From: Myxococcota bacterium | GTDB lineage: Bacteria; Myxococcota_A; Polyangia; Nannocystales; Nannocystaceae | Direction of reading: 5' to 3' | Length of the DNA stretch: 64,000 nt | Assembly (NCBI GenBank): GCA_039028615.1 | Contig: JBCCHT010000002.1 | Location: 64,001-128,000 of the forward strand | Shown here: one piece after another, positions 2,042 through 63,826 of the stretch | How positions within the stretch are numbered: position 1 is the stretch's first letter | How the letters are laid out: each line of letters begins with the position of its first letter | Notes under the pieces: model-generated | The model's input: the letters and a program-made list of their open reading frames with translations, nothing else | What the model was told of the DNA's origin: nothing | The model's database searches: none | Made by a program: the position numbers and the translations under genes

Positions 2042-2045
<4 letters not shown>
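285..2045 (+). CDS. FrzS/AglZ-family pseudo-receiver + acidic/Pro linker + long coiled-coil protein
   Basis: Receiver-like N-terminus with DIIFLRVEL (Arg where the phospho-Asp belongs) and [12 protein letters not shown] (cf. FrzS QHRKLKAHADEY); heptad-rich C-terminal half. GTG start at 285 chosen; ORF is open from 231. Confidence 0.8.
897..1049 (+). repeat. Tandem 84-nt duplication encoding [23 protein letters not shown] twice
   Basis: Units start at 897 and 981 and differ mainly at synonymous positions. Confidence 0.8.
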
Positions 2046-3955
<1,910 letters not shown>

Positions 3956-4015: not shown

Positions 4016-7000
4016 ATGGACTCGCCCCCGCCCTTCTCTGCGCTGCCTCTCGACGAGCAGCTCCGGCAGCTCGAGGCCGCGCTCGAACGAGGCGAGGACC
4101 CGCGGCAGCTGCTCCGCACCTGCGCGGGGGTTCGCGACCATGCGCCGCTGGCCTGGCTCGCCCGACGACTGCTCGAGCGCGACTGGCTACGCGGGGAAGA
4201 CGAGCGAGCGTGGACGGCCGGCTTCCTGCTCGAGCAACCGGAGACCGCGGTCGACCGCGTGCTCAAAGCCTGGGTCGGCGACGGCAGCTTCACCAAGCGC
4301 CGCGGCGACCCGCTGCAAGACACGCTGCTCGCCGTGTTGCAGCAGGTGGGCGTCGACCGGGTCTCGGTGATGTGCCTGGTCGACCGCGCCCTCAAGCACA
4401 ACTTCAGCGAAGCCCGCGACGCTCACGTCGAAGCGCTCACCGCCCGCTGTGCCGAGGCGCTCGCCGCCGGCCGGGTGGACGACGTCGGGATCGACCAGCT
4501 CGCCCAGGTGTCTTCGCCCGGCATCGCGACCTTGCGAGCCCGCGCCGCCGAGCATGGCCCGCAGACGGCCGAGGCCCTCCACGAGACGCTGAAGCAGCTG
4601 GCGCGGCGGACCCTCGAGGTGTTGGGGCAGGCCCCCAAGGCAGTGTCGCAAGCCAACGCCGAGGAGCTGCTGTCCAAGCGCGTCTACACCGACCCCGGGC
4701 ACTTCTTGGTCGAGCTGCTGCAGAACGCCGAAGACGCGGGTGCACGCACGTTTCGGCTGCGCTTCGGACCGCGACGCATCGAGGTCTGGCACGACGGCAA
4801 GCCCTTCGACACGCGCGACGTCGTGGGCGTGACCTCGATCGGCCAGACCACCAAGCGCAAGCAACAGATCGGGTTCTTCGGCGTCGGCTTCAAGTCGATC
4901 TACGAGATCACCGATCGGCCCCAGATCTACTCGGACGTCTACTGCTTCGAGATCGCCGACGTCTCGATTCCCAAGTCGCTCGCGGGCCGACCGAGCACGG
5001 TGTCGCCGGACGGCACCGTCTTGGTGCTGCCGCTGCGCGCCCCCGACGACCCCGAGCGCTCGCCCGAGCAGCTGTTCGGCAAGGCGCGCGACCTCGATGC
5101 GATCGTGCTGTTCACGCTGCGACGGATCGACGTCATCGATCTGGAGCTCGAAGCCGCCGACGGCACCATCACCAAGCACTCCGTGCACGAGCTGGCCCCC
5201 GACGAGCGCGGGGTGTCACGGATCCGCCAGCAGCCGCAGGGATGGGTCCGTGGCTACGCGGTGCACGACGCCGAGCACGTCTACCGCGGCGGGCTACGAG
5301 CCCCGGGCCGGGCCGATCGAACCCGGGTGATGGTGGGCGTTCGCGTCGACGAGGAGGGGGTGCCGCGAGCCCTCGAGCCCGACACGCCGACCGTCTACAG
5401 CTACCTGCCCACCGAGGAGCACTCGGGCCTGCGCTTCTTCGTGCAAGGGCACTTCGATGTCCCCGTCGACCGCGAGCGGGTCACGCAGGACTCGCGCTGG
5501 AACGAGTGGATCCTGAGTATGGTGCCGCAGGGGCTCGCGTCGCTGGCGGAGCAGCTCACCGCCGATCTGCCCGTCGAGACCCGGGCTCGCGTGGCGGAAG
5601 GCTTCCTGGGTGTCCTGCCCCTGATGAGCGAGCTCGGCTCGCCGATCTTCCGCCGCATCGTGCTGGGATTGAGGGCCGCGTTCGCGTCGATGGCCATCGT
5701 GCCCTGCGAAGACGGCTCCCTGCAGCCCGCCGCCTCCATCCTTCATACGGAAGAAGAGCTCGCCGCGCTCTACGAGGGTGAGCCGGTGCGGCTCGACGGC
5801 ACCGTGCGCTACCTGGCGCTGCGGCAGCTGCCACCGCGGGCGATCGAAGTGGCCAGCATGCTCGGGGCGAGTCGGCTACGGGTGGGCGACCTGGTGGATG
5901 AACTCGATCGCTGCCTGTCCGAGTGCTCCGATGGTTCGCGCAGCGAGGACTCGGCCGCGCCCATCTTCCTGCGCGAGCCGACGTCCGCTCGGCTCGCGGC
6001 GTGCTACGAAGTGCTCGATGGCGCGGTCATGCGTCGTACCGGGGCCGGCCCGCGGCGACTCGCCGACCTGAGCACCATGCGACGGCTTCGAGCGCTGCCC
6101 CTCGTGCTCTCGGAACGCGAGGCCCTGTATCGACCCGGGTCGGCCATCGTGCGCGCCGACCCGGCGCTCCGGGAGATCTACGAGGGGCTGCGGGCGTTCG
6201 TCCATCCCGACCACGACGCCGCCGTCGACCCCGAAGACCCAGCTCGCGCCACGACCACCGCGTTCCTCGAGCGCCTCGGCGTGCACTGCCTGTCGGTCCG
6301 CGACCTCGTCGACGAGCTCCACTCGCAGCTCGGGTCGCGTACCGAGCCCATCGCCGACCTCGCACAGACCCGCTTCCCTGGCACGCCGCAGAGGCTCGCC
6401 GCCGCCATCGCCCTGCTCGCCGAGGCCTCGACCCCGCTCCAACGCCGCGCCGCTCGGCTGCCGATCTTTGCCGCGCGGGACGGCCGGTACTACCCCGCCG
6501 CGCGCAGCCCCAGCGATCGAAACGGCGTCCTGCTCTACGAGCCGGGCGGCATCGGGACGGCGCTGCTCGAGTACTACGGCCACGAGCGTCCGGTCTGTGC
6601 TCCCGACGAAGACGACCCCGCGCTGAGCCTGCTGCAGAGCGCTCGAACCCCGGCGTTGTCCCTCGTTTCGTTGGTGGCCGACCTCCGTGACCGCGCCCCT
6701 TCGCTGGACGACGATGCCCTCGAGCGGCTGCATGCTCTGCTCGAAACCCTGCAGGACGAAGTCCCCGACCGCACCCGCCGCGAGCTGGCCAAGCTGCCGA
6801 TCTGGCCCGACACCCACGGTGTCCGGCGACCGCTCATCGGAGACGATGCGGTGCGGATCCCAGCTTCGCCTGCGATCGCAGCCCTGCTGCCCGCCCTGCC
6901 CCTGTTGCACCCTCGCGTGCTCGCCCGGACCCACGCCCGCGAGATGGGTGGGGACGTCGTCGGCATCGAGGCCTTGTTGGACGCGCTCGCCCCCGAGGCC

Positions 7001-10000
7001 GAGGCTCCCCTGCGCATCGAGCCGACGCCCGCCTCCGTCACCGCGGTGCTCGAGATCCTGCGAGAGGACAAGGACTCCATCTCGCCGCGCATGCGGGCGC
7101 GACTGGTCGAGGTCCCCGCCTTTCTGGACGATACGAACACGCCGTGCCGACTCGATCAGCTCGCGCTGGCCGAAGACGCATCGCTACGCCAGGTCTACGC
7201 CCACTGGCCCGCCCGGCGCTTCGTCGACCCCGAGTCCCTCAGCCGCACCGCCATCACCGAGCTGGATCTCGACGGCCGCCTCACCCGCGCCAAGACCGAG
7301 ACGCTGGTCGACGACCTCGCGGGCGTCTCGGCGCAGCTCGCCGGTCGCGTGGTGCACGGCGATTCCACGGACGAGCCTCTGCCCTTCGTTCACGACGGTG
7401 AGCACCTGCGCTCGGTCTTGCAGTACTGCGCCGCGCGGGCGACTGCGCTGCCGCGTGCCGCCCTGTTGCGCCTGTGCCAAGTCGCGATCATCCCCGATAC
7501 CCAGGGTGCGCTCGGGCTGCTCGGCGATGCGCGGCGCCCCGACACCGGGTCCGAAGTCTACGCCTGCGCCCCTTCGCTTCGACCGACCTTCTCGCTGATG
7601 GGCAGCCGAATCCTGGCGCCGTGGGCCGACGAGATACTCGGCCCGCTGCTCGAGGCGGCGGGTCGCGAGGCGCTCGACATCGTGGCTCTGGTCGCTCGAT
7701 TGAAGGCGCTGCCGCCCGTAGCCCCGAGCGAAGAGCGAGCGCCCGCCCAGACGCCCGAGGCGCTCGCGATCATCCACCAAGCACTGGTCGAAGGGGCCTC
7801 CGTCCTCGCCCATCATCACCCGCCCGAGCCACGCCCCGGCCTCGCCCCCAGCAGCCGAGTCTTGGGCGCACTCGCGATCTGGCCGACCCGCGCGGGTGGG
7901 GTGACCACGGCCGAGCACGTCGTCGACGACGATGCCCTGCAGACCCTGCTGCCCACCACTGGCCCAGCCCGACAGCGGCTGAAGGCGGCCACGCTCGACC
8001 CCGAGGCGACGGTCCGACTACGCGCGCTGGCTCCGTTGGTGGTGCCGACGTCCGCGTCGCACTTCGTGGCCGAGCTCGTCGAAGCCATGGCGCGACCCGG
8101 CCTGCCGCTGCATGAGCAGGACCCGATGCTCTCCGACCCGCTCCGGTTGGCGCAGCTGTATGCGTTCATCGGCCCCGACGCGCCGGTTCACCCCGCGGTG
8201 GACTCGACCGGTCGCCTGCGGCTGCACCCGCTGGTCCGAGCCCTGCCCGACACCGTCGCGCTGGCCGAGGGCACCGACCTGGCCGAGCGCCTGCTGCACC
8301 CGGCCATGGCCACGGCCCTGCCCGAAGACCTGCCCTTCGACTCCTTGCGCCCCGATGAGCTGGTCGGAGCCCTCATCGGCGATCACCTCGATCCGGGGCC
8401 CATGCAGGAGCACCCGCGGCTGACCGATGCCAAGCGACGGCAGCGCTTCTACGCCTGGCTGGTCGACCACGAGTCGGCCGTGTTCACCGATCCCGACGCC
8501 CGCGTTCGACTGCGCTCGCAGCCCTTGTTTCCCACCGACCGCGGCACCTTGCGCTCGGCCGATCAACTCGTGGTCGACCCCGATCTGCCGCAGCTCGACG
8601 TCGACTGGACGCCGCATCCCGAGCTCCCGGCCCAGACGCTGAGCCTGCTCGTGCGCCACCTGGGGATCGGTCGGCCTCCCGTCGAGGATCTGGTCGCCGA
8701 TCACCTCGCCCCCGCCTACCGCACCGCGGCCGCGCGCGGCGATGGCCCGGGCGCGGCGCGGCTGCTCGAGTACCTCGCCCGCTCCACCTCCAGCGTCCCC
8801 GGGTCGTTGATCCAAGCCTTGATCTCGATCGAAGGCCCCGCGCTGGTCGAGGGCTCCCATGGTCACTTCGTGGATGCGACCGGCCTGCTGCTCCCGCCCA
8901 CCGAGCTGGTGACCGCCGTCGAGTCGGTGTTCGGGACCAACCATCCGCCGCCGCATCCCCGCCTCACCGAGGCCACCCATGGGCTGCTGCGTACCCTCGG
9001 TGTGCCTTCCGTGCCCCCGCATGCGTGGGTCGCCGAAGCGATGCGCGCGGGCGTGGCCTCGGTCGCCGCCGCGTCGGGCCTGGCCCTGCTGGTCGCCTAC
9101 CTGCACCGCGACGATCCCGAGGGCACGCTCGAGCAGCTCCCGCTCACCGAGGTCCCGTGGCTGCTCGACGGCAACGGCATCACCCGACGACCGAGCGCGC
9201 TGTTTCACTGGACCGCCGAAGTGCAGGCCCTGGTCGGCGAAGACCCGAGCCTCTACCCCGCGCCACAGATAAGCCGCATCGTCGGTGAAGCCCTCATGGC
9301 GCGCCTGGGGCTACGTAACGTCTCCGACGTCCGCCTGCCCGAGGTCGTCGCCCACATCGACGCCAGCCGTAAACGCAGCGCCCCCGTGCCCTTCCGGGTG
9401 TACCAGTGGCTCGAGCGCGGCCTGGTCGAGGGCTGGCTCGACGGCGCTCAGCTGCGCGCGAGCTTGAGCGACCGCGCCTGGATCTGCAGCGACGACGGCG
9501 AGTACCACCCGCATGCCCGGGTGCTCGGCGTTCGGGCCCTCGAGCAGTTCGGCCAACGGCGCGGCTACTGGGAGCGCGGCCGCCAGCAGTGCCCCGCCCT
9601 GTGCCGCATCTTCGCCATCGCCACTCAGGTCGACTCCACTGCTCTCCTGGCCTTCTTGGAGGAAGTGGCTCACGACGCTCGGCTGAAGGGCGACGCTTCG
9701 CTGCTCGCGGACGAGCCCGCGCTGCCCCGCATGCTCCTGCGAGCCTACGCCGCGCTCGGAGCCGACGAGGAAGCGCAGGCGGGTGGCCTCGTGCTGTGCC
9801 GTCAGTGTGGCGGGGAAGACTCGGGCGCCCTCGCGCTTCGGCCCTTCGAAGACCCCCTGGTCCTGCGTAGCGACGCGCCCGCGCTCGAGGCGATGTTCTC
9901 CGCCGCGGGTACCTTCTTCGTCGCCGCTCCTGGTTCTCTGGAGGACCGCGCGGCCATCGACAGCTACTACCAACGCGGCGGCCTGGCCCGCTTGCGCGAG

Positions 10001-12652
10001 ACCTATGAGGTCGAAGTCGTCGACGACGGCGAGGATCTCGGCACCCACTACCCCGAGCCCATTGCCGCCCTCCGGGTCACGCTGCGCGCCCTGCTGTCCA
10101 CGTTGCCCCGCGTGCAGCTCCAGCGAACCCACCTGAGCTCCGAGGCCTGGGTGCACACCACCCGCCTCGCCCCGCTCGCCCGCGCCGGTTCCATCCGCGT
10201 ACGAGCAGGACTCGAAGTCGACTACGTGCTGCCGCGAGTCGGCCGCGCTCGCGCTCAACGCATCGCCGTCTACGACCCGAGCTCGCGGGCGCTACTCGTC
10301 GACACCCGAGTGCTCATGGATCCCGCGGGCACGGTGACCGGCTTGGCCCAGGGCCTCATGGCCTGCATCTACGACGGGCCAGGCGAAGACCAGCTCGTCG
10401 ACATCGTGGAGATCCTACTGCGCCTGCGCTCGCGCGAGCGCATGGACGACTACCTCGACCAGCGCTTCTTCCCCACCGCGGACGAGGGCGACCAAGAGCC
10501 CGGCAATCAACTGGCCGCGCGCGTGGGGGAGCTGTTCGACTACGGGCTCGACCGACGCCTGGTCGCGCGCTTCGAGGCGCTCGCCGGTCGCTCGCTCGAC
10601 CGCTGGCGCGACCCCGCCGTGTTCGCCGATCTTCCCGACGATCAAGAACAGGCCGTGCGCACCGTCGTCGGTCGCATGCTCGCCGCCATCGAGCTCGAGG
10701 ACGCGCCGCAGCCCCTGGTCGAGGCCTTGGCTCTGCTGCTGTCCGCCCGCTCGCTCAGCGACGTCCCGGCCGGGCTACTCGCGCCGCAGGCCCAGCGCCT
10801 CGAGCCCAACCTCAGCGACGAGGTCGGCCCTCGCCCCGCCTCCCATCGCCCCGAGGGGCGCAGCTCGGCCTCGGCCCCATCGGCTGGCGATGCCGGCGGA
10901 AGCCCGCTCCAGTTCGACTCGGGTCCATCCAGCTTCGATCCCGATAGCGACGACATCCCCTCCCTCGCCGAGCTCGAGGCGCGCCTGGCCGAGCTCACCG
11001 GGCAACGCGACGGCTCCGCCCTCGGCGACGACGCCTCTCCGCACCGCTTCGTCATTCCCTCCACCACCGAGCCCTCGGGTACCGCCTTTCCCATCGCCGA
11101 TGGCGACGACCGGGAGCCCGAGCCCGTTCACGATCCGCTCGACGCCCCTGCCCCCGAGCAGAGCGGTGGCTTCTGGCAGCGCATGGCTCGACGCCTCGGC
11201 CTCACCGAGCCCACCCACGAGGAACCACCGCCCGCGTGGGCCGAGCCCGGTGCCAACGTCCTGGGCCCGAGCAGCCATATCGGTCCTCAGCTGTGGGTGC
11301 GGGGCCATACCTTGCGCGAGATGGCCACGCAGCGCGTCCCCATGGGCTTGCTGCATCAGCCGCAGGTGCTGCCTTCGCCCTACCGCTACGTCGTGCACAC
11401 GCTCGGGGTCATCTTCGATCGCCAGAGCCAGCGCTGGCACCCGCAGTCCTTGCCCGGGCTCAGCGGGCTCTACGACGGAGAGCGCACCGGAGCCACCGTC
11501 TCGTTCGCGGGCAGCCTCAGCCCGGGTCGCAGCGTGATCCCAGTGCCGCTGTTCGGCGACATCGTGCGCATGGAAGTCGTAGACGCCAACCCCAAGCTCG
11601 TGCGACCGCTCGGTCGCATCGAAGGCGGCAGCGCGGTGGTGGAGGTCGACGGAGGCCGAGCGATCGACCTACGCTACGAAGTCGAGCTGCGCCGCCCCCC
11701 CACGCTCACCGAGAGCCATGTCGAGGGCTGGCCCACGCCTCGCCCCACCGTGCCTCGCCACGAGCTTCCCCGCCCCGTTCGCGACTGGATCGATCGCAAC
11801 GCCATCCCCGAGCGCTGCGCCTGGGAGCAGGCTCGCCGCGCCGAGGCCTTCGTCCAGCGCAACTACCTCTACGACCTCGAATTCCGCGAGCGCCCCGAGG
11901 TCGAGCGAGCCGCCCGCGACCTCCGACCCGGCGTCGGCAATCACCACCTCACCCTGCTGCATGCCAGCGCCGACGCCCAGACTCTGGGTCGCGGCGTCTG
12001 CTACGAGCTCAACGTCCTGGTCGCCGAACTCCTGCGCCACCTGGGCGTGCCCACCATGATCGCCACCGGCTGGATGCTCGACGAAGGCTTTGCCGACCGA
12101 CCCGACCACCTGTTCGCCCTCGCCGTCCTCCCTTCTGCCGCCGGTCCTTGCTTGATGCCCCTGGATGCCGCCACGGGACCACGTGGTCCCGTTCGCCCCC
12201 TCGCCGGCTCGCAGCCTCCCACCGTCGACCTCTCCCCGCGGCGGCGCCCCTCGATCCTCGAGCCCGGCGGTGGCTGGGGTGGTCGCATGTTGCCGGGACC
12301 CGAGCGCGAAGTCGCCGTCGACGAGCACGTGCATTCGTTCCATCGCTTGCTCCGAGACGAACTCGACCGCGAGCGCGATGCTCTGTATCGATTGCTCCGC
12401 ATTGCCGAGGCCGCCCGCGGCACCGAACCCACGCCACGCCGGGATGACGAGCAGCTCTCCGACCTACGCGCACGAGCGATTCGAGCCCTGGGCGATCCCG
12501 CCCGACTCGCCCCGATGCTGGCGATCATTCGTGGGGACTACGATCACACGGAGGCGGTGCCCGACGTCGTGCAGGCGCTCGTGCGAGATGGGCTGGCCAC
12601 CGTGCAGAGCCGACCGAGCTACCGCGTGCGACCAGCCGATGAAAACCACTGA
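4016..12652 (+). CDS. 2878-aa sacsin/NO VEIN-like GHKL (Hsp90-like) ATPase with internal repeats and a C-terminal transglutaminase-like domain
   Basis: ELLQNAEDA, HDGKPF, SIGQTTK, IGFFGVGFKSIY, YSYLPT..GLRFFVQGHF..RE..DSRWNEW; C-terminal GVCYELN..LLRHLGVP..GW..DHLFA..PLDA; GGAGG RBS. Confidence 0.85.
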   Translation: MDSPPPFSALPLDEQLRQLEAALERGEDPRQLLRTCAGVRDHAPLAWLARRLLERDWLRGEDERAWTAGFLLEQPETAVDRVLKAWVGDGSFTKRRGDPLQDTLLAVLQQVGVDRVSVMCLVDRALKHNFSEARDAHVEALTARCAEALAAGRVDDVGIDQLAQVSSPGIATLRARAAEHGPQTAEALHETLKQLARRTLEVLGQAPKAVSQANAEELLSKRVYTDPGHFLVELLQNAEDAGARTFRLRFGPRRIEVWHDGKPFDTRDVVGVTSIGQTTKRKQQIGFFGVGFKSIYEITDRPQIYSDVYCFEIADVSIPKSLAGRPSTVSPDGTVLVLPLRAPDDPERSPEQLFGKARDLDAIVLFTLRRIDVIDLELEAADGTITKHSVHELAPDERGVSRIRQQPQGWVRGYAVHDAEHVYRGGLRAPGRADRTRVMVGVRVDEEGVPRALEPDTPTVYSYLPTEEHSGLRFFVQGHFDVPVDRERVTQDSRWNEWILSMVPQGLASLAEQLTADLPVETRARVAEGFLGVLPLMSELGSPIFRRIVLGLRAAFASMAIVPCEDGSLQPAASILHTEEELAALYEGEPVRLDGTVRYLALRQLPPRAIEVASMLGASRLRVGDLVDELDRCLSECSDGSRSEDSAAPIFLREPTSARLAACYEVLDGAVMRRTGAGPRRLADLSTMRRLRALPLVLSEREALYRPGSAIVRADPALREIYEGLRAFVHPDHDAAVDPEDPARATTTAFLERLGVHCLSVRDLVDELHSQLGSRTEPIADLAQTRFPGTPQRLAAAIALLAEASTPLQRRAARLPIFAARDGRYYPAARSPSDRNGVLLYEPGGIGTALLEYYGHERPVCAPDEDDPALSLLQSARTPALSLVSLVADLRDRAPSLDDDALERLHALLETLQDEVPDRTRRELAKLPIWPDTHGVRRPLIGDDAVRIPASPAIAALLPALPLLHPRVLARTHAREMGGDVVGIEALLDALAPEAEAPLRIEPTPASVTAVLEILREDKDSISPRMRARLVEVPAFLDDTNTPCRLDQLALAEDASLRQVYAHWPARRFVDPESLSRTAITELDLDGRLTRAKTETLVDDLAGVSAQLAGRVVHGDSTDEPLPFVHDGEHLRSVLQYCAARATALPRAALLRLCQVAIIPDTQGALGLLGDARRPDTGSEVYACAPSLRPTFSLMGSRILAPWADEILGPLLEAAGREALDIVALVARLKALPPVAPSEERAPAQTPEALAIIHQALVEGASVLAHHHPPEPRPGLAPSSRVLGALAIWPTRAGGVTTAEHVVDDDALQTLLPTTGPARQRLKAATLDPEATVRLRALAPLVVPTSASHFVAELVEAMARPGLPLHEQDPMLSDPLRLAQLYAFIGPDAPVHPAVDSTGRLRLHPLVRALPDTVALAEGTDLAERLLHPAMATALPEDLPFDSLRPDELVGALIGDHLDPGPMQEHPRLTDAKRRQRFYAWLVDHESAVFTDPDARVRLRSQPLFPTDRGTLRSADQLVVDPDLPQLDVDWTPHPELPAQTLSLLVRHLGIGRPPVEDLVADHLAPAYRTAAARGDGPGAARLLEYLARSTSSVPGSLIQALISIEGPALVEGSHGHFVDATGLLLPPTELVTAVESVFGTNHPPPHPRLTEATHGLLRTLGVPSVPPHAWVAEAMRAGVASVAAASGLALLVAYLHRDDPEGTLEQLPLTEVPWLLDGNGITRRPSALFHWTAEVQALVGEDPSLYPAPQISRIVGEALMARLGLRNVSDVRLPEVVAHIDASRKRSAPVPFRVYQWLERGLVEGWLDGAQLRASLSDRAWICSDDGEYHPHARVLGVRALEQFGQRRGYWERGRQQCPALCRIFAIATQVDSTALLAFLEEVAHDARLKGDASLLADEPALPRMLLRAYAALGADEEAQAGGLVLCRQCGGEDSGALALRPFEDPLVLRSDAPALEAMFSAAGTFFVAAPGSLEDRAAIDSYYQRGGLARLRETYEVEVVDDGEDLGTHYPEPIAALRVTLRALLSTLPRVQLQRTHLSSEAWVHTTRLAPLARAGSIRVRAGLEVDYVLPRVGRARAQRIAVYDPSSRALLVDTRVLMDPAGTVTGLAQGLMACIYDGPGEDQLVDIVEILLRLRSRERMDDYLDQRFFPTADEGDQEPGNQLAARVGELFDYGLDRRLVARFEALAGRSLDRWRDPAVFADLPDDQEQAVRTVVGRMLAAIELEDAPQPLVEALALLLSARSLSDVPAGLLAPQAQRLEPNLSDEVGPRPASHRPEGRSSASAPSAGDAGGSPLQFDSGPSSFDPDSDDIPSLAELEARLAELTGQRDGSALGDDASPHRFVIPSTTEPSGTAFPIADGDDREPEPVHDPLDAPAPEQSGGFWQRMARRLGLTEPTHEEPPPAWAEPGANVLGPSSHIGPQLWVRGHTLREMATQRVPMGLLHQPQVLPSPYRYVVHTLGVIFDRQSQRWHPQSLPGLSGLYDGERTGATVSFAGSLSPGRSVIPVPLFGDIVRMEVVDANPKLVRPLGRIEGGSAVVEVDGGRAIDLRYEVELRRPPTLTESHVEGWPTPRPTVPRHELPRPVRDWIDRNAIPERCAWEQARRAEAFVQRNYLYDLEFRERPEVERAARDLRPGVGNHHLTLLHASADAQTLGRGVCYELNVLVAELLRHLGVPTMIATGWMLDEGFADRPDHLFALAVLPSAAGPCLMPLDAATGPRGPVRPLAGSQPPTVDLSPRRRPSILEPGGGWGGRMLPGPEREVAVDEHVHSFHRLLRDELDRERDALYRLLRIAEAARGTEPTPRRDDEQLSDLRARAIRALGDPARLAPMLAIIRGDYDHTEAVPDVVQALVRDGLATVQSRPSYRVRPADENH

Positions 12653-39110: not shown

Positions 39111-41801
39111 TCATGCGCTCAGGTGAGCCTCCAGGCTCGGGCCGGCGGCATCGAGGGCCGCGTCGAGACCGGCAAGCTTGGGCCCGCCCGCCTGCGCGAG
39201 CTCGGGGCGACCCCCTCCGCGGCCGTCGACGTGCTGCGCCAGCACGCCGACCAGCTTGCCCGCGTGCACCCGCGACTTGAGGTCCGGGGTCACGGCCACC
39301 AGCAGCATCGCCTTGCCGTTGGCCTCGGTGCCGAGCACCACGACCCCCGAGCCCAGGCGATCCCGTAGGGTATCGGCCGCACCGCGCAGGCTCTTGGGGT
39401 CGATCCCCGCCACCCGGCGGGTCAGCAGCCGCACGCCGGCCACCTCGACGACCTCGTCCGCCCCGGAGCCGCCCCCAGTGGCGAGCTTCTGCTTGAGCTG
39501 GTCGATCTCGCGATCGCGGGTCTTGATGTCGGCCTGGAGCTTGCCGATGCGCTCGGGCACCTCGGCCGGGTTGGGCGCGTGCAGCCGGGACGCCGCGTCG
39601 GCGGTCACTTCGGCCAGCTCCTGCACATGCGCCAGCGCGCCCATGCCCGTCACCGCCTCGATGCGACGCACGCCCTGGGCGATGCCCCCTTCACCGACGA
39701 TCGCGAACAGGCCGATGTCGCCCGCCCGCGAGACATGGGTGCCGCCGCAAAGCTCGACGCTGTCGTCGGCCAGCCGCACCACGCGAACCGTCTCGCCGTA
39801 CTTCTCTCCGAACAGGCCGATCGCGCCCTCGGCCTTGGCCTCGGGCATCGAAAGCTCCTTGGTGATGCTCGACGAGTTGCCCAGCACCATGGCGTTGACC
39901 CGGGTCTCGATGGCTCGGCGCTCATCGGCCGTCACCGCCCGGTTGTGGCTGAAGTCGAAGCGCAGCCGGTCGGGAGCGACGAGCGAGCCCTTCTGCACGA
40001 CATGCTCGCCGAGCTCGGCTCGGAGGGCGTGATGCAGCAGGTGGGTCGCGCTGTGGTTGCGCTTGATCGACTGGCGACGACCGTCGTCGACCTCGATCTG
40101 GAGGCTGGCGCCGACGGACAGCTCGCCCTCGACGACCTTGCCCGCGTGCACGTGCATGCCGGCGCGAGGCTTGGTGGTGCCCTCGATCTCGATGCGCACG
40201 CCCTTGCCCGTGATCACGCCGGTGTCCCCGACCTGGCCGCCGCTCTCGGCGTACATCGGCGTCCGATCGAACACGAGCTCGACGGCCTGCCCGGCCGAGG
40301 CGCTGTCGACCCGCGCGCCGTCGACCAGGACGGCCCGCAGCGTGGCGTCGGCCTGCTCGGCGTCGTAGCCGAGGAACTCGCTGTCCCCGACGTCCTCGTG
40401 CACCTCGAAGTAGATGTCGGCGATCGCCTCGCCGCCACCGAGCTGGGCTCCACGCCCGCCCCCGCCGCTCTGGCGGGCCCGCAGCGCGTCTTCGGCCGCG
40501 GCCTCGTCGAGGCTCAGCTCGTGCTCGCGCAGCATCACCGCGGTGAGGTCGATGGGGAAGCCGTAGGTGTCGTACAGCTCGGCCGCGACGCCGGGCTCGA
40601 ATGCCTGCTGGCTGCGGTCGTGCTGCTCGATGGCCTTGTGCAGCTTTCGGATGCCGCGATCGAGCGTGCGACGGAACAGCTCCTCTTCGCCGCGCACGAC
40701 CTCCTCGATCACCGCGGCGCGCTCCTGCAGCTCGGGGTAGACCTCGCCGAACACGTCGACGACCTTGCGGCAGACGTCGTGCATGAAGGGCTCGGCCAGG
40801 CCCACGTCGGCGCCATGACGGATGGCGCGTCGCATGATCCGGCGCAGCACGTAGGAGCGACCGGCCTTGTCCGGGAACACGCCGTCGGCCACAAGGAACG
40901 CGCTCGCTCGCGCATGGTCGGCGATGACGCGGAACGGAGCCTCGCCCGCATCACTGGGTGCACGCGATCCAGCGAGGCGCTTGGCCTCGTCGACCATCGG
41001 CGCGAGCAGGTCGCTCTCGTAGTTGCTCTTGGCCCCCATCACCGCCGCCGCGATGCGCTCGAGACCGGATCCGGTGTCGATGCTGGGCTTGGGCAGCGGC
41101 CGCATGGTGCCGTCGCCGGGCTTCTCGTACTGCATGAACACCAGGTTCCACAGCTCGACCCAGTCATCCTCGTCGAACGCGGGCCCGGTGCCGGGCTGGT
41201 CCGCCGTGACCGGCGCGGTGTCCCCCTTGAACAGGTGGATCTCCGAGCACGGGCCGCAGGGGCCGGTGTCGCCCATCTGCCAGAAGTTGTCCTTGGCCGA
41301 GCAGCGATAGATGCGACCGGCGGGAACGTGGCGCAGCCACATCTCGGCCGCCTCGTCGTCGGCAGGAGCGTCCTCGCCCGTCCCGTCGAACACGGTCACC
41401 GCCAGGCGCTCGGCGGGCAGGCCCAGCTCCTTGGTGAGGAAGGCCCAGGCCCAGTCGATCGAGTCCGACTTGAAGTAGTCACCGAACGAGAAGTTGCCCA
41501 GCATCTCGAACAAGGTCTGGTGACGCGGGGTGAAGCCCACGTTGTCCAGGTCGTTGTGCTTGCCGCCGGCCCGGACGCAGCGCTGCACCGAGACCGCGCG
41601 CGAGTAGGGTCGCTGCTCGCGGCCCGTGAACACGTCCTTGAACTGGTTCATGCCCGCGTTGACGAACAGCAACGTCGGGTCGTCCTGGGGAACCAAAGAA
41701 GAGCTGGGGACATGGGTGTGCCCATGCCCGACGAAAAAGTCCACGAAGCGCTGGCGAATCTGGGCCGCGGTCATCACGGCGCGCTGAGTCGAGTCAGCCA
41801 T
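39111..41801 (-). CDS. alaS: Alanine-tRNA ligase
   Basis: DPTLLFVNAGMNQFK, FEMLGNFSFGDYFK, ELWNLVFMQY, NHSATHLLH, ELCGGTHV, GGGRPELAQAGG; alternative start 41774. Confidence 0.97.
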   Translation of the reverse strand: MADSTQRAVMTAAQIRQRFVDFFVGHGHTHVPSSSLVPQDDPTLLFVNAGMNQFKDVFTGREQRPYSRAVSVQRCVRAGGKHNDLDNVGFTPRHQTLFEMLGNFSFGDYFKSDSIDWAWAFLTKELGLPAERLAVTVFDGTGEDAPADDEAAEMWLRHVPAGRIYRCSAKDNFWQMGDTGPCGPCSEIHLFKGDTAPVTADQPGTGPAFDEDDWVELWNLVFMQYEKPGDGTMRPLPKPSIDTGSGLERIAAAVMGAKSNYESDLLAPMVDEAKRLAGSRAPSDAGEAPFRVIADHARASAFLVADGVFPDKAGRSYVLRRIMRRAIRHGADVGLAEPFMHDVCRKVVDVFGEVYPELQERAAVIEEVVRGEEELFRRTLDRGIRKLHKAIEQHDRSQQAFEPGVAAELYDTYGFPIDLTAVMLREHELSLDEAAAEDALRARQSGGGGRGAQLGGGEAIADIYFEVHEDVGDSEFLGYDAEQADATLRAVLVDGARVDSASAGQAVELVFDRTPMYAESGGQVGDTGVITGKGVRIEIEGTTKPRAGMHVHAGKVVEGELSVGASLQIEVDDGRRQSIKRNHSATHLLHHALRAELGEHVVQKGSLVAPDRLRFDFSHNRAVTADERRAIETRVNAMVLGNSSSITKELSMPEAKAEGAIGLFGEKYGETVRVVRLADDSVELCGGTHVSRAGDIGLFAIVGEGGIAQGVRRIEAVTGMGALAHVQELAEVTADAASRLHAPNPAEVPERIGKLQADIKTRDREIDQLKQKLATGGGSGADEVVEVAGVRLLTRRVAGIDPKSLRGAADTLRDRLGSGVVVLGTEANGKAMLLVAVTPDLKSRVHAGKLVGVLAQHVDGRGGGRPELAQAGGPKLAGLDAALDAAGPSLEAHLSA

Positions 41802-42915
41802 ATTCGATCTCCATCTCGGAATCGCCCCCGTTGTCTCCTGCGGTCACGCCGCGGAAGTACAGGGCAAAATCATCGGGGTTGGTCGAAGCGGCGAGCGCCA
41901 TCTCGTAGGTGACCAGCTTGCGCTGCACCAGCTCGGTGAGCGATTGGTCGAACGAGACCATCCCGTAGGGGTGCGCGCCGTCGCGAATTGCATCCACGAT
42001 CTCCACCGTGCGGGTGGGATCGATGATCATGTCGCGGATGCGGGGAGTGTTGATCATGACCTCGACCGAGGGAATCATCCCGCGCCCATCCGCTCGCGGG
42101 ATGAGCCGCTGAGAGACGACCGCGGAGAGGATCGAGGCCAGCTGCAAGCGCACCGCGGTCTGCTGGTGCGAGGGGAACATCTGCACGATGCGGCCGATGG
42201 TCTCGGTGGCGTCGAGGGTGTGCAGGGTCGAGAACACCAGGTGGCCGGTCTCCGCCGCCAGCATGGCCGTCTCGATGGTCTCGAGGTCCCGCATCTCGCC
42301 CACCAGCACCACGTCGGGGTCCTGGCGCAGCGCGGCCCGCAGGGCCTTTTGGAAGCTGTTGGTGTCGAAGCCGATCTCGCGCTGGTTGACCACCGAGCGA
42401 CGGTCCCCGAACACGTACTCGATCGGGTCTTCGATGGTGATGATGTGGGCCGCGCGCTCGATGTTGATGACGTTGAGCAGCGAGGCCAGCGTGGTCGACT
42501 TGCCCGAGCCGGTGATGCCGGTCACCAGCACCAGGCCGCGGTGCTCGCGGGCCAGCTCCTTGACGCGCGAGGGGATGTTGAGCCGCTCGAAGGGCGGGAT
42601 GTCGCCCGCGATGACGCGCATCACCATGCCGCACTCGCCCCGCTGCCGGAACACGTTGACGCGATAGCGCAGTCCGTCGGGCGTCGCGTAGGCCAGGTCG
42701 ACCTCGTGCTCGCTCATGAACTTCTCATGAGTGTGCTCGCTCATGATGTTCATCGCGAACGTCATGATGACGTCCGAGGTCATCGGCGGGACATCCTTGA
42801 GCGTCCGCAACGAACCACGAATGCGGAACACCGGAGGGAGCCCGACCTTGAGATGAACGTCCGACGCACCCAGCTTGCGCGCCGCGCCCAGCACCCGGTC
42901 GAAGATCTCGTTCAT
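41794..42915 (-). CDS. PilT/PilU-family ATPase paralog
   Basis: ASDVHL, GITGSGKSTT, TIEDPIE, QRE, RQDPDVVLVGEMRD, TGHLVFSTLH. Confidence 0.9.
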   Translation of the reverse strand: MNEIFDRVLGAARKLGASDVHLKVGLPPVFRIRGSLRTLKDVPPMTSDVIMTFAMNIMSEHTHEKFMSEHEVDLAYATPDGLRYRVNVFRQRGECGMVMRVIAGDIPPFERLNIPSRVKELAREHRGLVLVTGITGSGKSTTLASLLNVINIERAAHIITIEDPIEYVFGDRRSVVNQREIGFDTNSFQKALRAALRQDPDVVLVGEMRDLETIETAMLAAETGHLVFSTLHTLDATETIGRIVQMFPSHQQTAVRLQLASILSAVVSQRLIPRADGRGMIPSVEVMINTPRIRDMIIDPTRTVEIVDAIRDGAHPYGMVSFDQSLTELVQRKLVTYEMALAASTNPDDFALYFRGVTAGDNGGDSEMEIEYG

Positions 42916-43298
42916 GGGGAGTGAAGGTAGCGGATCGGCGCGCCCCCGACCCACCCCCGTCGGCAACTCGCGTCGAGCGCAATGTCACCGGCCCGAGATC
43001 CCGCCCGTCTCTTATCGCAAAGGCCTGAGATTCATGGTGTTTTCAGCGCGCAGCGATGCCCCCCAGGGCCATGCGAGCCCCGACGCGTCCCCAGGTGCAG
43101 CCCTGCGGACGAGGCTCAGTTGGCTTGTCGACGCACTCGATCGCCGACAGCGATTTCCACAACGAGGGGTGCTCAAAGCAGACCGCCCCGCCGCCGCGCT
43201 TGCCCTGGCTCGCTTGTCGGTTGATGTCGGCCACGCGCACCCAGTCGCCCGTGGTGGGGCTCGCGCAGGGCATCTCGATTTCACGCGGCTTGAAAATC

Positions 43299-62731: not shown

Positions 62732-63826
62732 ATGGCGATCAACCTGCATCAGCTCCTCAAGGCCATGGTCGAGTCCGGTGCGACCGACCTCCACGTGACC
62801 ACGGGCTGCCCGCCCCTGCTGCGCATCGATGGCGACTTGGTGCCGCTCAAGACCGGAAAGATGACCCCGGTCGAGTCGCGCAACCTCTGCTACTCGGTGC
62901 TCTCCGACAAGCAAAAGCAGCGCTTCGAGGAAGACCAGGAGCTGGATTTCTCGTTTGGCGTCAAGGGCCTGGCCCGCTTCCGCGGCAACCTGTTCGTCCA
63001 GCGCGGTGCGACCTGCGCGGCGTTCCGGCTCATCCCCTACGAGATTCCGCCGCTCGAGCAGCTCGGCCTGCCCCCCGTGGTCAAGCGCCTCACCGAGGCC
63101 CCCCGCGGGCTGGTGCTGGTGACCGGCCCCACCGGGTCGGGCAAGAGCACCACGCTGGCCTCGATGATCAACCTCGTCAATCACTCGCGACGGGGTCACA
63201 TCATGACCATCGAGGACCCGATCGAGTACCTGCACCAGCACGGGACCTGCATCGTCAACCAGCGCGAGGTCGGACAGGACACCAAGAGCTTCAAGAACGC
63301 GCTCAAGTACGTGCTGCGGCAGGACCCCGACGTGGTGCTCCTGGGCGAGATGCGGGACCACGAGACGATGGAGGCCGCGCTCACCCTGGCCGAGACCGGT
63401 CACCTCACCCTGGGCACGCTGCACACCAACTCCGCGGTGCAGACCATCAACCGTGTCATCGACATGTTCCCCATGGCCCAGCAGACGCAGGTCCGCACCC
63501 AGCTGAGCTTCGTGCTCGAGGCGGTGCTGTGTCAGTCGCTGCTGCCCAAGGTCGGCGGAGGCCGGGCCTTGGCGGTCGAGGTCATGGTGCCCAACGACGC
63601 CATCCGGGCCCTGATCCGCGACGGCAAGCTGCACCAGATCTACTCGCAGATGCAGCTGGGCCAGGGCGTCCACGAGATGCAGACCTTCAACCAATCGCTG
63701 GCCGACCTGGTGCAGCGAAACCTGGTCTCGGGCGAGACCGCCATCCATCGCTCGAGCGACAAGGACGAGCTCCGCGGCATGCTCGAGCGCGGGCAGAACC
63801 TGCAGCAAGTCCAGCGGCGCCGCTAA
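62732..63826 (+). CDS. pilT: Type IV pilus retraction ATPase PilT
   Basis: GPTGSGKST, TIEDPIE, QRE, RQDPD, AIRALIRD (AIRNLIRE motif); sits between pilB and pilC. Confidence 0.93.
   Translation: MAINLHQLLKAMVESGATDLHVTTGCPPLLRIDGDLVPLKTGKMTPVESRNLCYSVLSDKQKQRFEEDQELDFSFGVKGLARFRGNLFVQRGATCAAFRLIPYEIPPLEQLGLPPVVKRLTEAPRGLVLVTGPTGSGKSTTLASMINLVNHSRRGHIMTIEDPIEYLHQHGTCIVNQREVGQDTKSFKNALKYVLRQDPDVVLLGEMRDHETMEAALTLAETGHLTLGTLHTNSAVQTINRVIDMFPMAQQTQVRTQLSFVLEAVLCQSLLPKVGGGRALAVEVMVPNDAIRALIRDGKLHQIYSQMQLGQGVHEMQTFNQSLADLVQRNLVSGETAIHRSSDKDELRGMLERGQNLQQVQRRR

Follow-up and report, generated by a model that had tools for sequence, protein, structure and literature searches.

The window examined here, the whole 64,000-nucleotide stretch of contig JBCCHT010000002.1 from a Myxococcota bacterium of the Nannocystaceae, carries a gene for a protein of 2,878 amino acids in which a sacsin/NO VEIN-type ATPase is connected, through a long repeat array and an acidic linker, to a C-terminal Cys-His-Asp thiol enzyme that displays a transglutaminase-like fold. 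The giant proteins constitute a real, intact, conserved and rare family, whose anatomy, fold, conserved catalytic residues and fixed fusion were established computationally. The reading favoured here, with a probability of roughly 45%, is that of a Tiamat-derived stand-alone surveillance protein that acts on proteins rather than DNA, most likely against phage, since the ATPase matches nine TmtA (Tiamat) profiles, the nearest shorter ATPases are TmtA-like and the order of parts is that of Tiamat. Phage defence by the giant protein is plausible; a function in the upkeep of the cell follows close behind. An earlier note, made from the sequence alone, had described an ATPase, repeats, a linker and a thiol-enzyme domain within one open reading frame, and this anatomy was borne out, as were the positions given for its motifs (E233 at 4712, C2662 at 11999, H2698 at 12107 and D2717 at 12164). 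The parts of the protein, all encoded on the + strand, are as follows.

4016..12652, +: whole open reading frame (P0001), 2,878 residues, open frame with no internal stop
4016..4600, +: N-terminal domain, residues 1-195, fold unassigned (profile matches across family members)
4613..5635, +: GHL (Bergerat-fold) ATPase and transducer segment, residues ~200-540 (Pfam, NCBIfam, PADLOC)
5663..9325, +: degenerate repeat array, about ten units of roughly 110-140 residues (profile-based self matches)
10034..10444, +: probable inactive Wss1/zincin-like domain, residues ~2007-2143, without HExxH (fold match in a model)
10793..11245, +: acidic/Pro-rich linker, residues ~2260-2410, poorly conserved (sequence, conservation)
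11165..11203, +: basic amphipathic helix within the linker, residues 2384-2396 (motif count in relatives)
11255..12208, +: beta-sandwich and TgpA-type transglutaminase-like core, residues ~2414-2731 (model, fold matches)
11999, 12107 and 12164, +: catalytic triad C2662, H2698 and D2717 (kept in 144 of 144 full-length relatives)
12305..12643, +: C-terminal helices and tail, residues ~2764-2876, predicted homodimer interface (two-copy prediction)

The identity of the C-terminal enzyme was revealed by fold comparison alone, as comparison of this region with solved structures by sequence and by profile gave nothing useful, and the Pfam Transglut_core match at residues 2655-2691 (E 0.006) lies below its cut-off. 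The AlphaFold model of residues 2410-2878 presents a predicted local distance difference test score (pLDDT) of 92.6 and a predicted template modelling score of 0.91. Foldseek, the check proposed for this region in the earlier note, ranked TgpA first (PDB code 6g4h; E 6e-9, probability 1.0), and a wide fold search (VIA) also returned TgpA (Z score of 15.1 and root mean square deviation (rmsd) of 4.1 over 257 aligned residues), followed by other transglutaminase-fold proteins. The transglutaminase/papain fold anticipated for the region is thus supported, and so is the proposal that, in an ATPase of the sacsin/NO VEIN type, a thiol enzyme has taken the place of the nuclease. The region is covered by the TgpA-type fold and helices, and no Pfam match to the C-terminal DUF3883/NOV_C nuclease was found.

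The triad is intact throughout the family. Among 144 full-length relatives, defined as proteins with both end domains above set scores, the Cys and the His are kept in all, while the acidic position holds Asp in 139 relatives and Glu in the other 5. As the relatives were gathered via the enzyme domain, its presence is given by construction, whereas invariance at the level of residues is not; with only 24 of the 326 columns of the domain reaching 97% conservation, retention of the triad in every relative exceeds chance, as judged from the alignment. In the model the Cys begins a helix, the His begins a strand and the Asp comes after the next strand, which is the usual arrangement of transglutaminase-like enzymes. 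A C-terminal domain that serves binding or dimerisation without catalysis, or a fusion that arose by chance or in assembly, would agree with the sub-threshold Pfam match but is very improbable in view of the invariant triad, its conventional placement in the model and the occurrence of the same fusion in more than 140 distinct proteins.

Fold and triad show, at the level of the model, the class of chemistry, that of a Cys-His-Asp thiol enzyme. Transglutaminase activity has been shown for TgpA in vitro (PMC3507681), but the reaction is not readable from the fold, because the Transglut_core Pfam family (PF01841), as described in PMC10318531, also spans several peptidase families beside transglutaminases. 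Cleavage of the target is judged slightly better than an even chance, cross-linking is possible though unlikely, and deamidation is a distinctly weaker candidate than either. TgpA itself (PA2873 of Pseudomonas aeruginosa; PDB codes 6g49 and 6g4h) shares with the giant protein the beta-sandwich followed by the catalytic core and the Cys-His-Asp triad. It is, however, a six-helix membrane protein with DUF3488 and a periplasmic enzyme domain, whereas the giant protein displays no DUF3488/TgpA_N match and no clear membrane helix, and identity between the two is 11-16%. The highest 19-residue hydropathy of the giant protein is 1.93, and values remain below 2.0 in 135 of the 144 relatives; in the absence of a clear membrane-spanning helix, the enzyme domain should be cytoplasmic.

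At the N-terminal side, the sacsin/NO VEIN-type ATPase that had been recognised from its motifs is upheld by matches exceeding the cut-offs of both Pfam SACS (residues 224-308, E 1e-13) and the NCBIfam sacsin N-terminal domain. In PADLOC, nine TmtA profiles were matched, all those listed, the best with an E value of 6e-51 over residues 176-585. Ten residues are invariant in the 144 full-length relatives (E233, N237, G261, G286, G289, G291, K293, T334, R486 and R488), and E233 sits in the motif whose Glu is required for Tiamat defence, the equivalence being one of motif. Family fragments aside, the nearest ATPases shorter than 1,582 residues comprise ~1,000-1,150 residues, match TmtA profiles and are 25-33% identical. 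Neither the transglutaminase domain nor the N-terminal domain of residues 1-195 was detected in any of 60 such shorter outgroup ATPases; most of 12 tails inspected by eye look Cys-rich and HNH-like. The Atlas provided no useful lead for the N-terminal domain.

Between the two catalytic ends, the repeat array extends over residues ~550-1770. Although self-BLAST detected no repeats, family profiles uphold the long array claimed earlier (best E value of 7e-12, compared with 0.0015 for the reversed sequence). The array is the putative equivalent of the tetratricopeptide repeat (TPR)-like middle region of Tiamat, and one relative, P0036, matches the middle of the TmtA profile PDLC03969. It is also the least conserved folded part: among four genus orthologues, invariant residues number 23-53 per 100 over residues 501-1500 and 85-89 per 100 in the ATPase core, and across the relatives the catalytic ends are conserved while the repeat arms vary. 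The model of residues 1709-2265 has a pLDDT of 93.4. Foldseek returned nothing for it at an E value of 0.001, its N-terminal half has no clear structural match, and its first 290 residues were barely covered by the wide search. Within it, the two best fold matches of residues ~2007-2143 are both Wss1 (Z scores of 6.0 and 5.8), with many zincins below; the best match presents an rmsd of 3.7 over 100 aligned residues, a middling score taken alone. The domain, seen in clade A only, lacks HExxH in all 69 carriers, and in the model it is probably an inactive Wss1/zincin-like domain.

The acidic/Pro-rich linker of the earlier note is present and poorly conserved, a description refined here by a conserved amphipathic helix at residues 2384-2396. 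The strict form of the helix motif occurs in 88 of the 144 relatives, where shuffles predict 0.3, and in 31 of 2,880 control windows taken from other parts of these proteins, for a pattern drawn up after the alignment had been seen; of the remaining 56 relatives, many display looser variants. From its sequence, the helix is suggested as a candidate membrane-targeting element that may tether the enzyme; a role as a motif for binding proteins is just as possible. In sequence it presumably resembles the helices of FtsA and MinD. Both of these proteins are described as anchored to membranes by such a helix on a disordered linker (PMC4252000).

The last part of the chain provides a possible base for a dimer. 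Two copies of residues 2410-2878 were predicted to pair, mostly through residues 2837-2876, with a homodimer score of 0.48 (0.00 for the best of three controls), a mark attained by 20 of 30 homodimers and 1 of 23 single chains of solved structure. Between runs, at least 59% of the contacts agreed, and pLDDT was at least 80. The prediction, which supports binding and is no proof of it, suggests that the last 20 residues dimerise and would close a GHL-type clamp.

Taken in order, these parts resemble those of Tiamat. As in TmtA, a single gene encodes a GHL ATPase with a catalytic Glu, a repeat-rich middle and a C-terminal enzyme, together with a Wss1-like fold lacking HExxH, a disordered linker and, after the effector, a tail predicted to dimerise; the Tiamat order of parts, including the Wss1 match without HExxH and the post-nuclease residues predicted to pair between subunits, is that reported in a preprint (10.64898/2026.09.30.754977). 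In contrast to Tiamat, a TgpA-type thiol enzyme replaces the PD-(D/E)xK nuclease, the protein is about twice the length of the TmtA profiles, an extra 195-residue N-terminal domain and the amphipathic helix are present, and the scanned loci display no conserved helicase, nuclease or methylase neighbours. Sacsin and NO VEIN share with the giant protein the SACS-type ATPase domain and a giant repeat scaffold; it differs from them in containing one ATPase rather than three, and no J, HEPN or NOV_C/DUF3883 match was found in it with Pfam.

The earlier note knew of no characterised precedent for the architecture, a judgement that stands in part. The transglutaminase version appears undescribed: the main text of the preprint contains no occurrence of "transglut", "papain", "cysteine" or "myxococc", although its supplements may list members, and a search of titles and abstracts, with most subscription journals outside its reach, gave no description of this combination, the co-occurrence of sacsin and transglutaminase in PMC8195603 and PMC3710099 being in unrelated contexts. 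The concept is less new than assumed, because the preprint already describes exchange of the Tiamat nuclease for other effectors, one peptidase included (10.64898/2026.09.30.754977). The Type V-A Tiamat-like proteins described there carry a Schlafen-like domain followed by a peptidase whose class is not named in the text; no Schlafen match was found in the giant protein, either with Pfam or in the fold lists of its modelled parts. By architecture, the preprint's score threshold being unapplied, the giant protein is a new effector version of Tiamat-like proteins and not a strict Tiamat.

For the clamp itself we infer the coupling, location, trigger and target. Two copies are predicted to form a ring-like clamp whose base would be held by the C-terminal tails, and the ATPase heads, by analogy with GHL biology, would open and close its top. 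The lumen may be lined by the repeat arms and the inactive Wss1-like domain, which would take hold of a client protein there, while the linker helix would keep both thiol-enzyme domains against the cytoplasmic membrane on its inner side. Capture of the client, together with ATP turnover, would then release or aim the Cys-His-Asp site, which could form an acyl-enzyme on a peptide or a Gln side chain, so that the target is cleaved, deamidated or cross-linked. A more specific version, in which a membrane-tethered, ATP-gated clamp uses a true transglutaminase for the cross-linking of phage proteins, or of host machinery that phage needs, at the inner membrane, is unlikely. If true, cross-linking of phage proteins would be an antiviral chemistry not found described in the literature searched, and the protein would offer a bacterial model of sacsin-type ATPases that hand clients to a downstream enzyme.

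Several observations weigh against a surveillance protein directed at phage. Within its own genus the giant gene behaves as an ordinary resident: strong matches were present in 6 of 6 genomes, hflX lies upstream in all 4 relatives with upstream DNA, the identity of 63-69% over long matches falls inside the 51-83% of its neighbours, and its guanine-cytosine (GC) content matches that of the window. Of the enzyme-domain carriers of at least 1,900 residues, 143 of 147 bear the ATPase and the other 4 are without the N-terminal part, showing that the effector is not swapped within the family. The identities of ATPase and enzyme co-vary (Spearman 0.52), indicating an old and fixed fusion; in 108 of 144 cases the nearest neighbour by ATPase is among the five nearest by enzyme. 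No defence-island signal emerged from the scanned neighbours. The Pfam scan (105 of 183 called) revealed one locus with cas3/cse1 and one with an EAD2-kinase, and PADLOC on 101 neighbours from 8 genomes gave a single specific match, one JetC, the two sets possibly sharing loci and the counts having no random-locus baseline; the other 7 PADLOC matches are generic kinases or sigma-54 ATPases. According to the preprint, about 14% of Tiamat-like proteins lie in non-defence neighbourhoods (10.64898/2026.09.30.754977). Finally, the tail motif, searched with a profile built from clade A, is found in 62 of 69 clade A proteins but in none of 75 from clade B. The base of the clamp is consequently not universal as modelled; in clade B, dimers must form in another way, if they form at all. 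The only clear defence neighbours seen in these scans are a type I-E-like cas3/cse1 pair (L031:13361-18123) and the JetC of a Wadjet system (L116:4260-8000).

The check for co-occurrence with defence islands, suggested earlier, thus shows the gene seldom near defence genes, and with vertical conservation in the genus and few defence neighbours the conflict role then proposed is not supported as yet. The same data would suit a domesticated machine for protein remodelling or quality control, with the same clamp and chemistry directed at the cell's own membrane-associated or damaged proteins, a tentative reading that stands close behind phage defence. Such an upkeep function is consistent with a gene present only once, with synteny that is stable within genera, with neighbours of an ordinary kind and with the fixed fusion; in the 12.3-Mb genome, tblastn found besides the locus itself one weak, ATPase-only match on contig C12. 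MoxR ATPases paired with transglutaminase-like peptidases, and sacsin as a chaperone-like giant, offer analogies. At the level of the phylum the giant gene was detected in 11 of 401 genomes, and all 11 carriers have genomes of at least 7.8 Mb, a further point for upkeep; its absence from the other 390 counts against it. The same holds at the level of the family, where strong matches occur in 3 of 5 genomes of a second genus and in none of the other 15 genera, that is, in 9 of 73 genomes overall and with no strong match in 15 of 17 genera (both genome sets are samples of partly incomplete genomes). Phyletic patchiness, another check proposed at the outset, is therefore present and speaks for the defence reading, and conservation of a vertical, housekeeping kind, which the earlier note had named as refuting its proposal, is seen within the genus but not across family or phylum. 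Also against upkeep are the TmtA-like nearest kin of the ATPase and three family members (L023, L026 and L076) split by frame changes in different places, which may be assembly errors or decay.

A further argument for upkeep derives from a second, unnamed gene of ~1,050 residues in the same bacterial family (G000:C12:247183-249345, with L104 and L105; relatives P0218-P0220 and L093-L103). It encodes, in order, a GHL ATPase, a hydrophobic helix, a beta-sandwich and transglutaminase with triad, a second hydrophobic helix and a C-terminal domain, and is followed by a gene of ~550-700 residues without Pfam matches. Matches to it, some partial, were found in 70 of 73 family genomes, this genome included; it appears to be a core membrane system without a name, and it shows that an ATPase-transglutaminase pair can be core machinery in this bacterial family. 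Like the giant protein, it unites in a single chain a GHL ATPase with a module of beta-sandwich and transglutaminase; unlike it, hydrophobic helices flank the enzyme, there is no long repeat array and the ATPase belongs to a different subfamily. The enzyme modules of the two match by profile with 96.8% over 231 columns, sandwich included, but a transglutaminase family used as control reached 96.3% over 159 columns, so that common descent of the modules is not established. Derivation of the giant's module from the membrane gene is favoured by alignment length, its probability not being separated from that of the control.

In the profile search of 1.84 billion representatives, 163 matches were obtained at an E value of 1e-30 or better. 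Named carriers are mostly Myxococcota, with the closest named relatives in Nannocystaceae-type myxobacteria, and include Bradymonadia, Obscuribacterales, Vulcanimicrobiota/Eremiobacterota, Planctomycetota and Ozemobacteraceae; isolates carrying the family are Haliangium ochraceum and Paraliomyxa miuraensis. The labels of members in NCBI and JGI go no further than "sacsin N-terminal", "transglutaminase domain" or hypothetical protein. In a quick tree of 50 rows chosen by hand, the query falls in a clade of 26 (support 100) with Obscuribacterales, Vulcanimicrobiota, Ozemobacteraceae and one Planctomycetes row, the other group comprising Haliangium, Polyangiales and Bradymonadia, with Planctomycetota rows included. 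The interleaving of unrelated phyla suggests gene transfer. Several of these carrier groups are predatory or social, and their composition would suit a conflict protein aimed at cells, which inactivates incoming toxins or the proteins of epibionts or prey, or enforces kin recognition or cell death; a membrane-proximal helix would fit a target entering through the envelope. This explanation is improbable: neither a signal nor a membrane helix was seen in the protein, the neighbour scan revealed no partner gene of the immunity type, strong conservation within the genus is unlike that of a kin-recognition locus, and the gene was not found in most Myxococcota searched.

Defence by a Tiamat-derived protein remains the preferred interpretation. 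Tiamat, NO VEIN and sacsin share a common ATPase scaffold, and the output of the giant family is one catalytic cysteine; such a cysteine allows the substrate to be trapped, by which the client of a clamp of the sacsin type could be identified directly. Should the protein protect against phage, protein cleavage or cross-linking at the membrane would join the Tiamat effector range. Should it not, an immune scaffold would have been domesticated for the upkeep of a bacterial cell, as proposed for the eukaryotic homologues.

Other members of the family display features of their own. Those of Obscuribacterales (L016-L021) form one clade, with a GC fraction of about 0.5 and lengths of ~2,950 residues. 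Several flanking genes are common to L016, L017 and L019, and a smaller number to L020 and L021, which argues that the gene is vertically kept in a second phylum too. Two members (P0022 and P0029) contain an extra Pfam domain, PF14446. Among the best 150 of 337 matches, the short ones considered as stand-alone proteins of the enzyme subfamily (6 plus others) look like fragments of the same architecture. A third giant family, of 2,400-2,600 residues, combines TPR-like matches with a C-terminal transglutaminase core and has no ATPase match (L068:8463-15716, L069:1079-8545, L070:8334-16130 and L071:1-5814); twice it adjoins a Ser/Thr kinase-TPR gene.

Upstream of the giant gene lies the following neighbour.

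2042..3955, +: hflX, 60 bases from the giant gene, conserved within the genus

It carries a ~200-residue N-terminal extension and is overlapped by a response regulator gene with a long coiled-coil tail (231-2045); within the genus, both genes keep their place upstream of the giant gene. Neither a sigma-70 promoter nor a terminator was found between hflX and the giant gene, and there is no evidence for a functional link between the two. A Shine-Dalgarno-like purine run lies 6 bases upstream of the ATG of the giant gene, and a molybdopterin oxidoreductase gene is positioned tail-to-tail with it. No tRNA was found in the window, which contains two type II/IV secretion (PilT/PilB-like) ATPase genes (41794-42966 and 62732-63826). 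The remaining genes serve ordinary metabolism and signalling; among them are alaS, a gene for a carotenoid oxygenase and a kinase-TPR gene.

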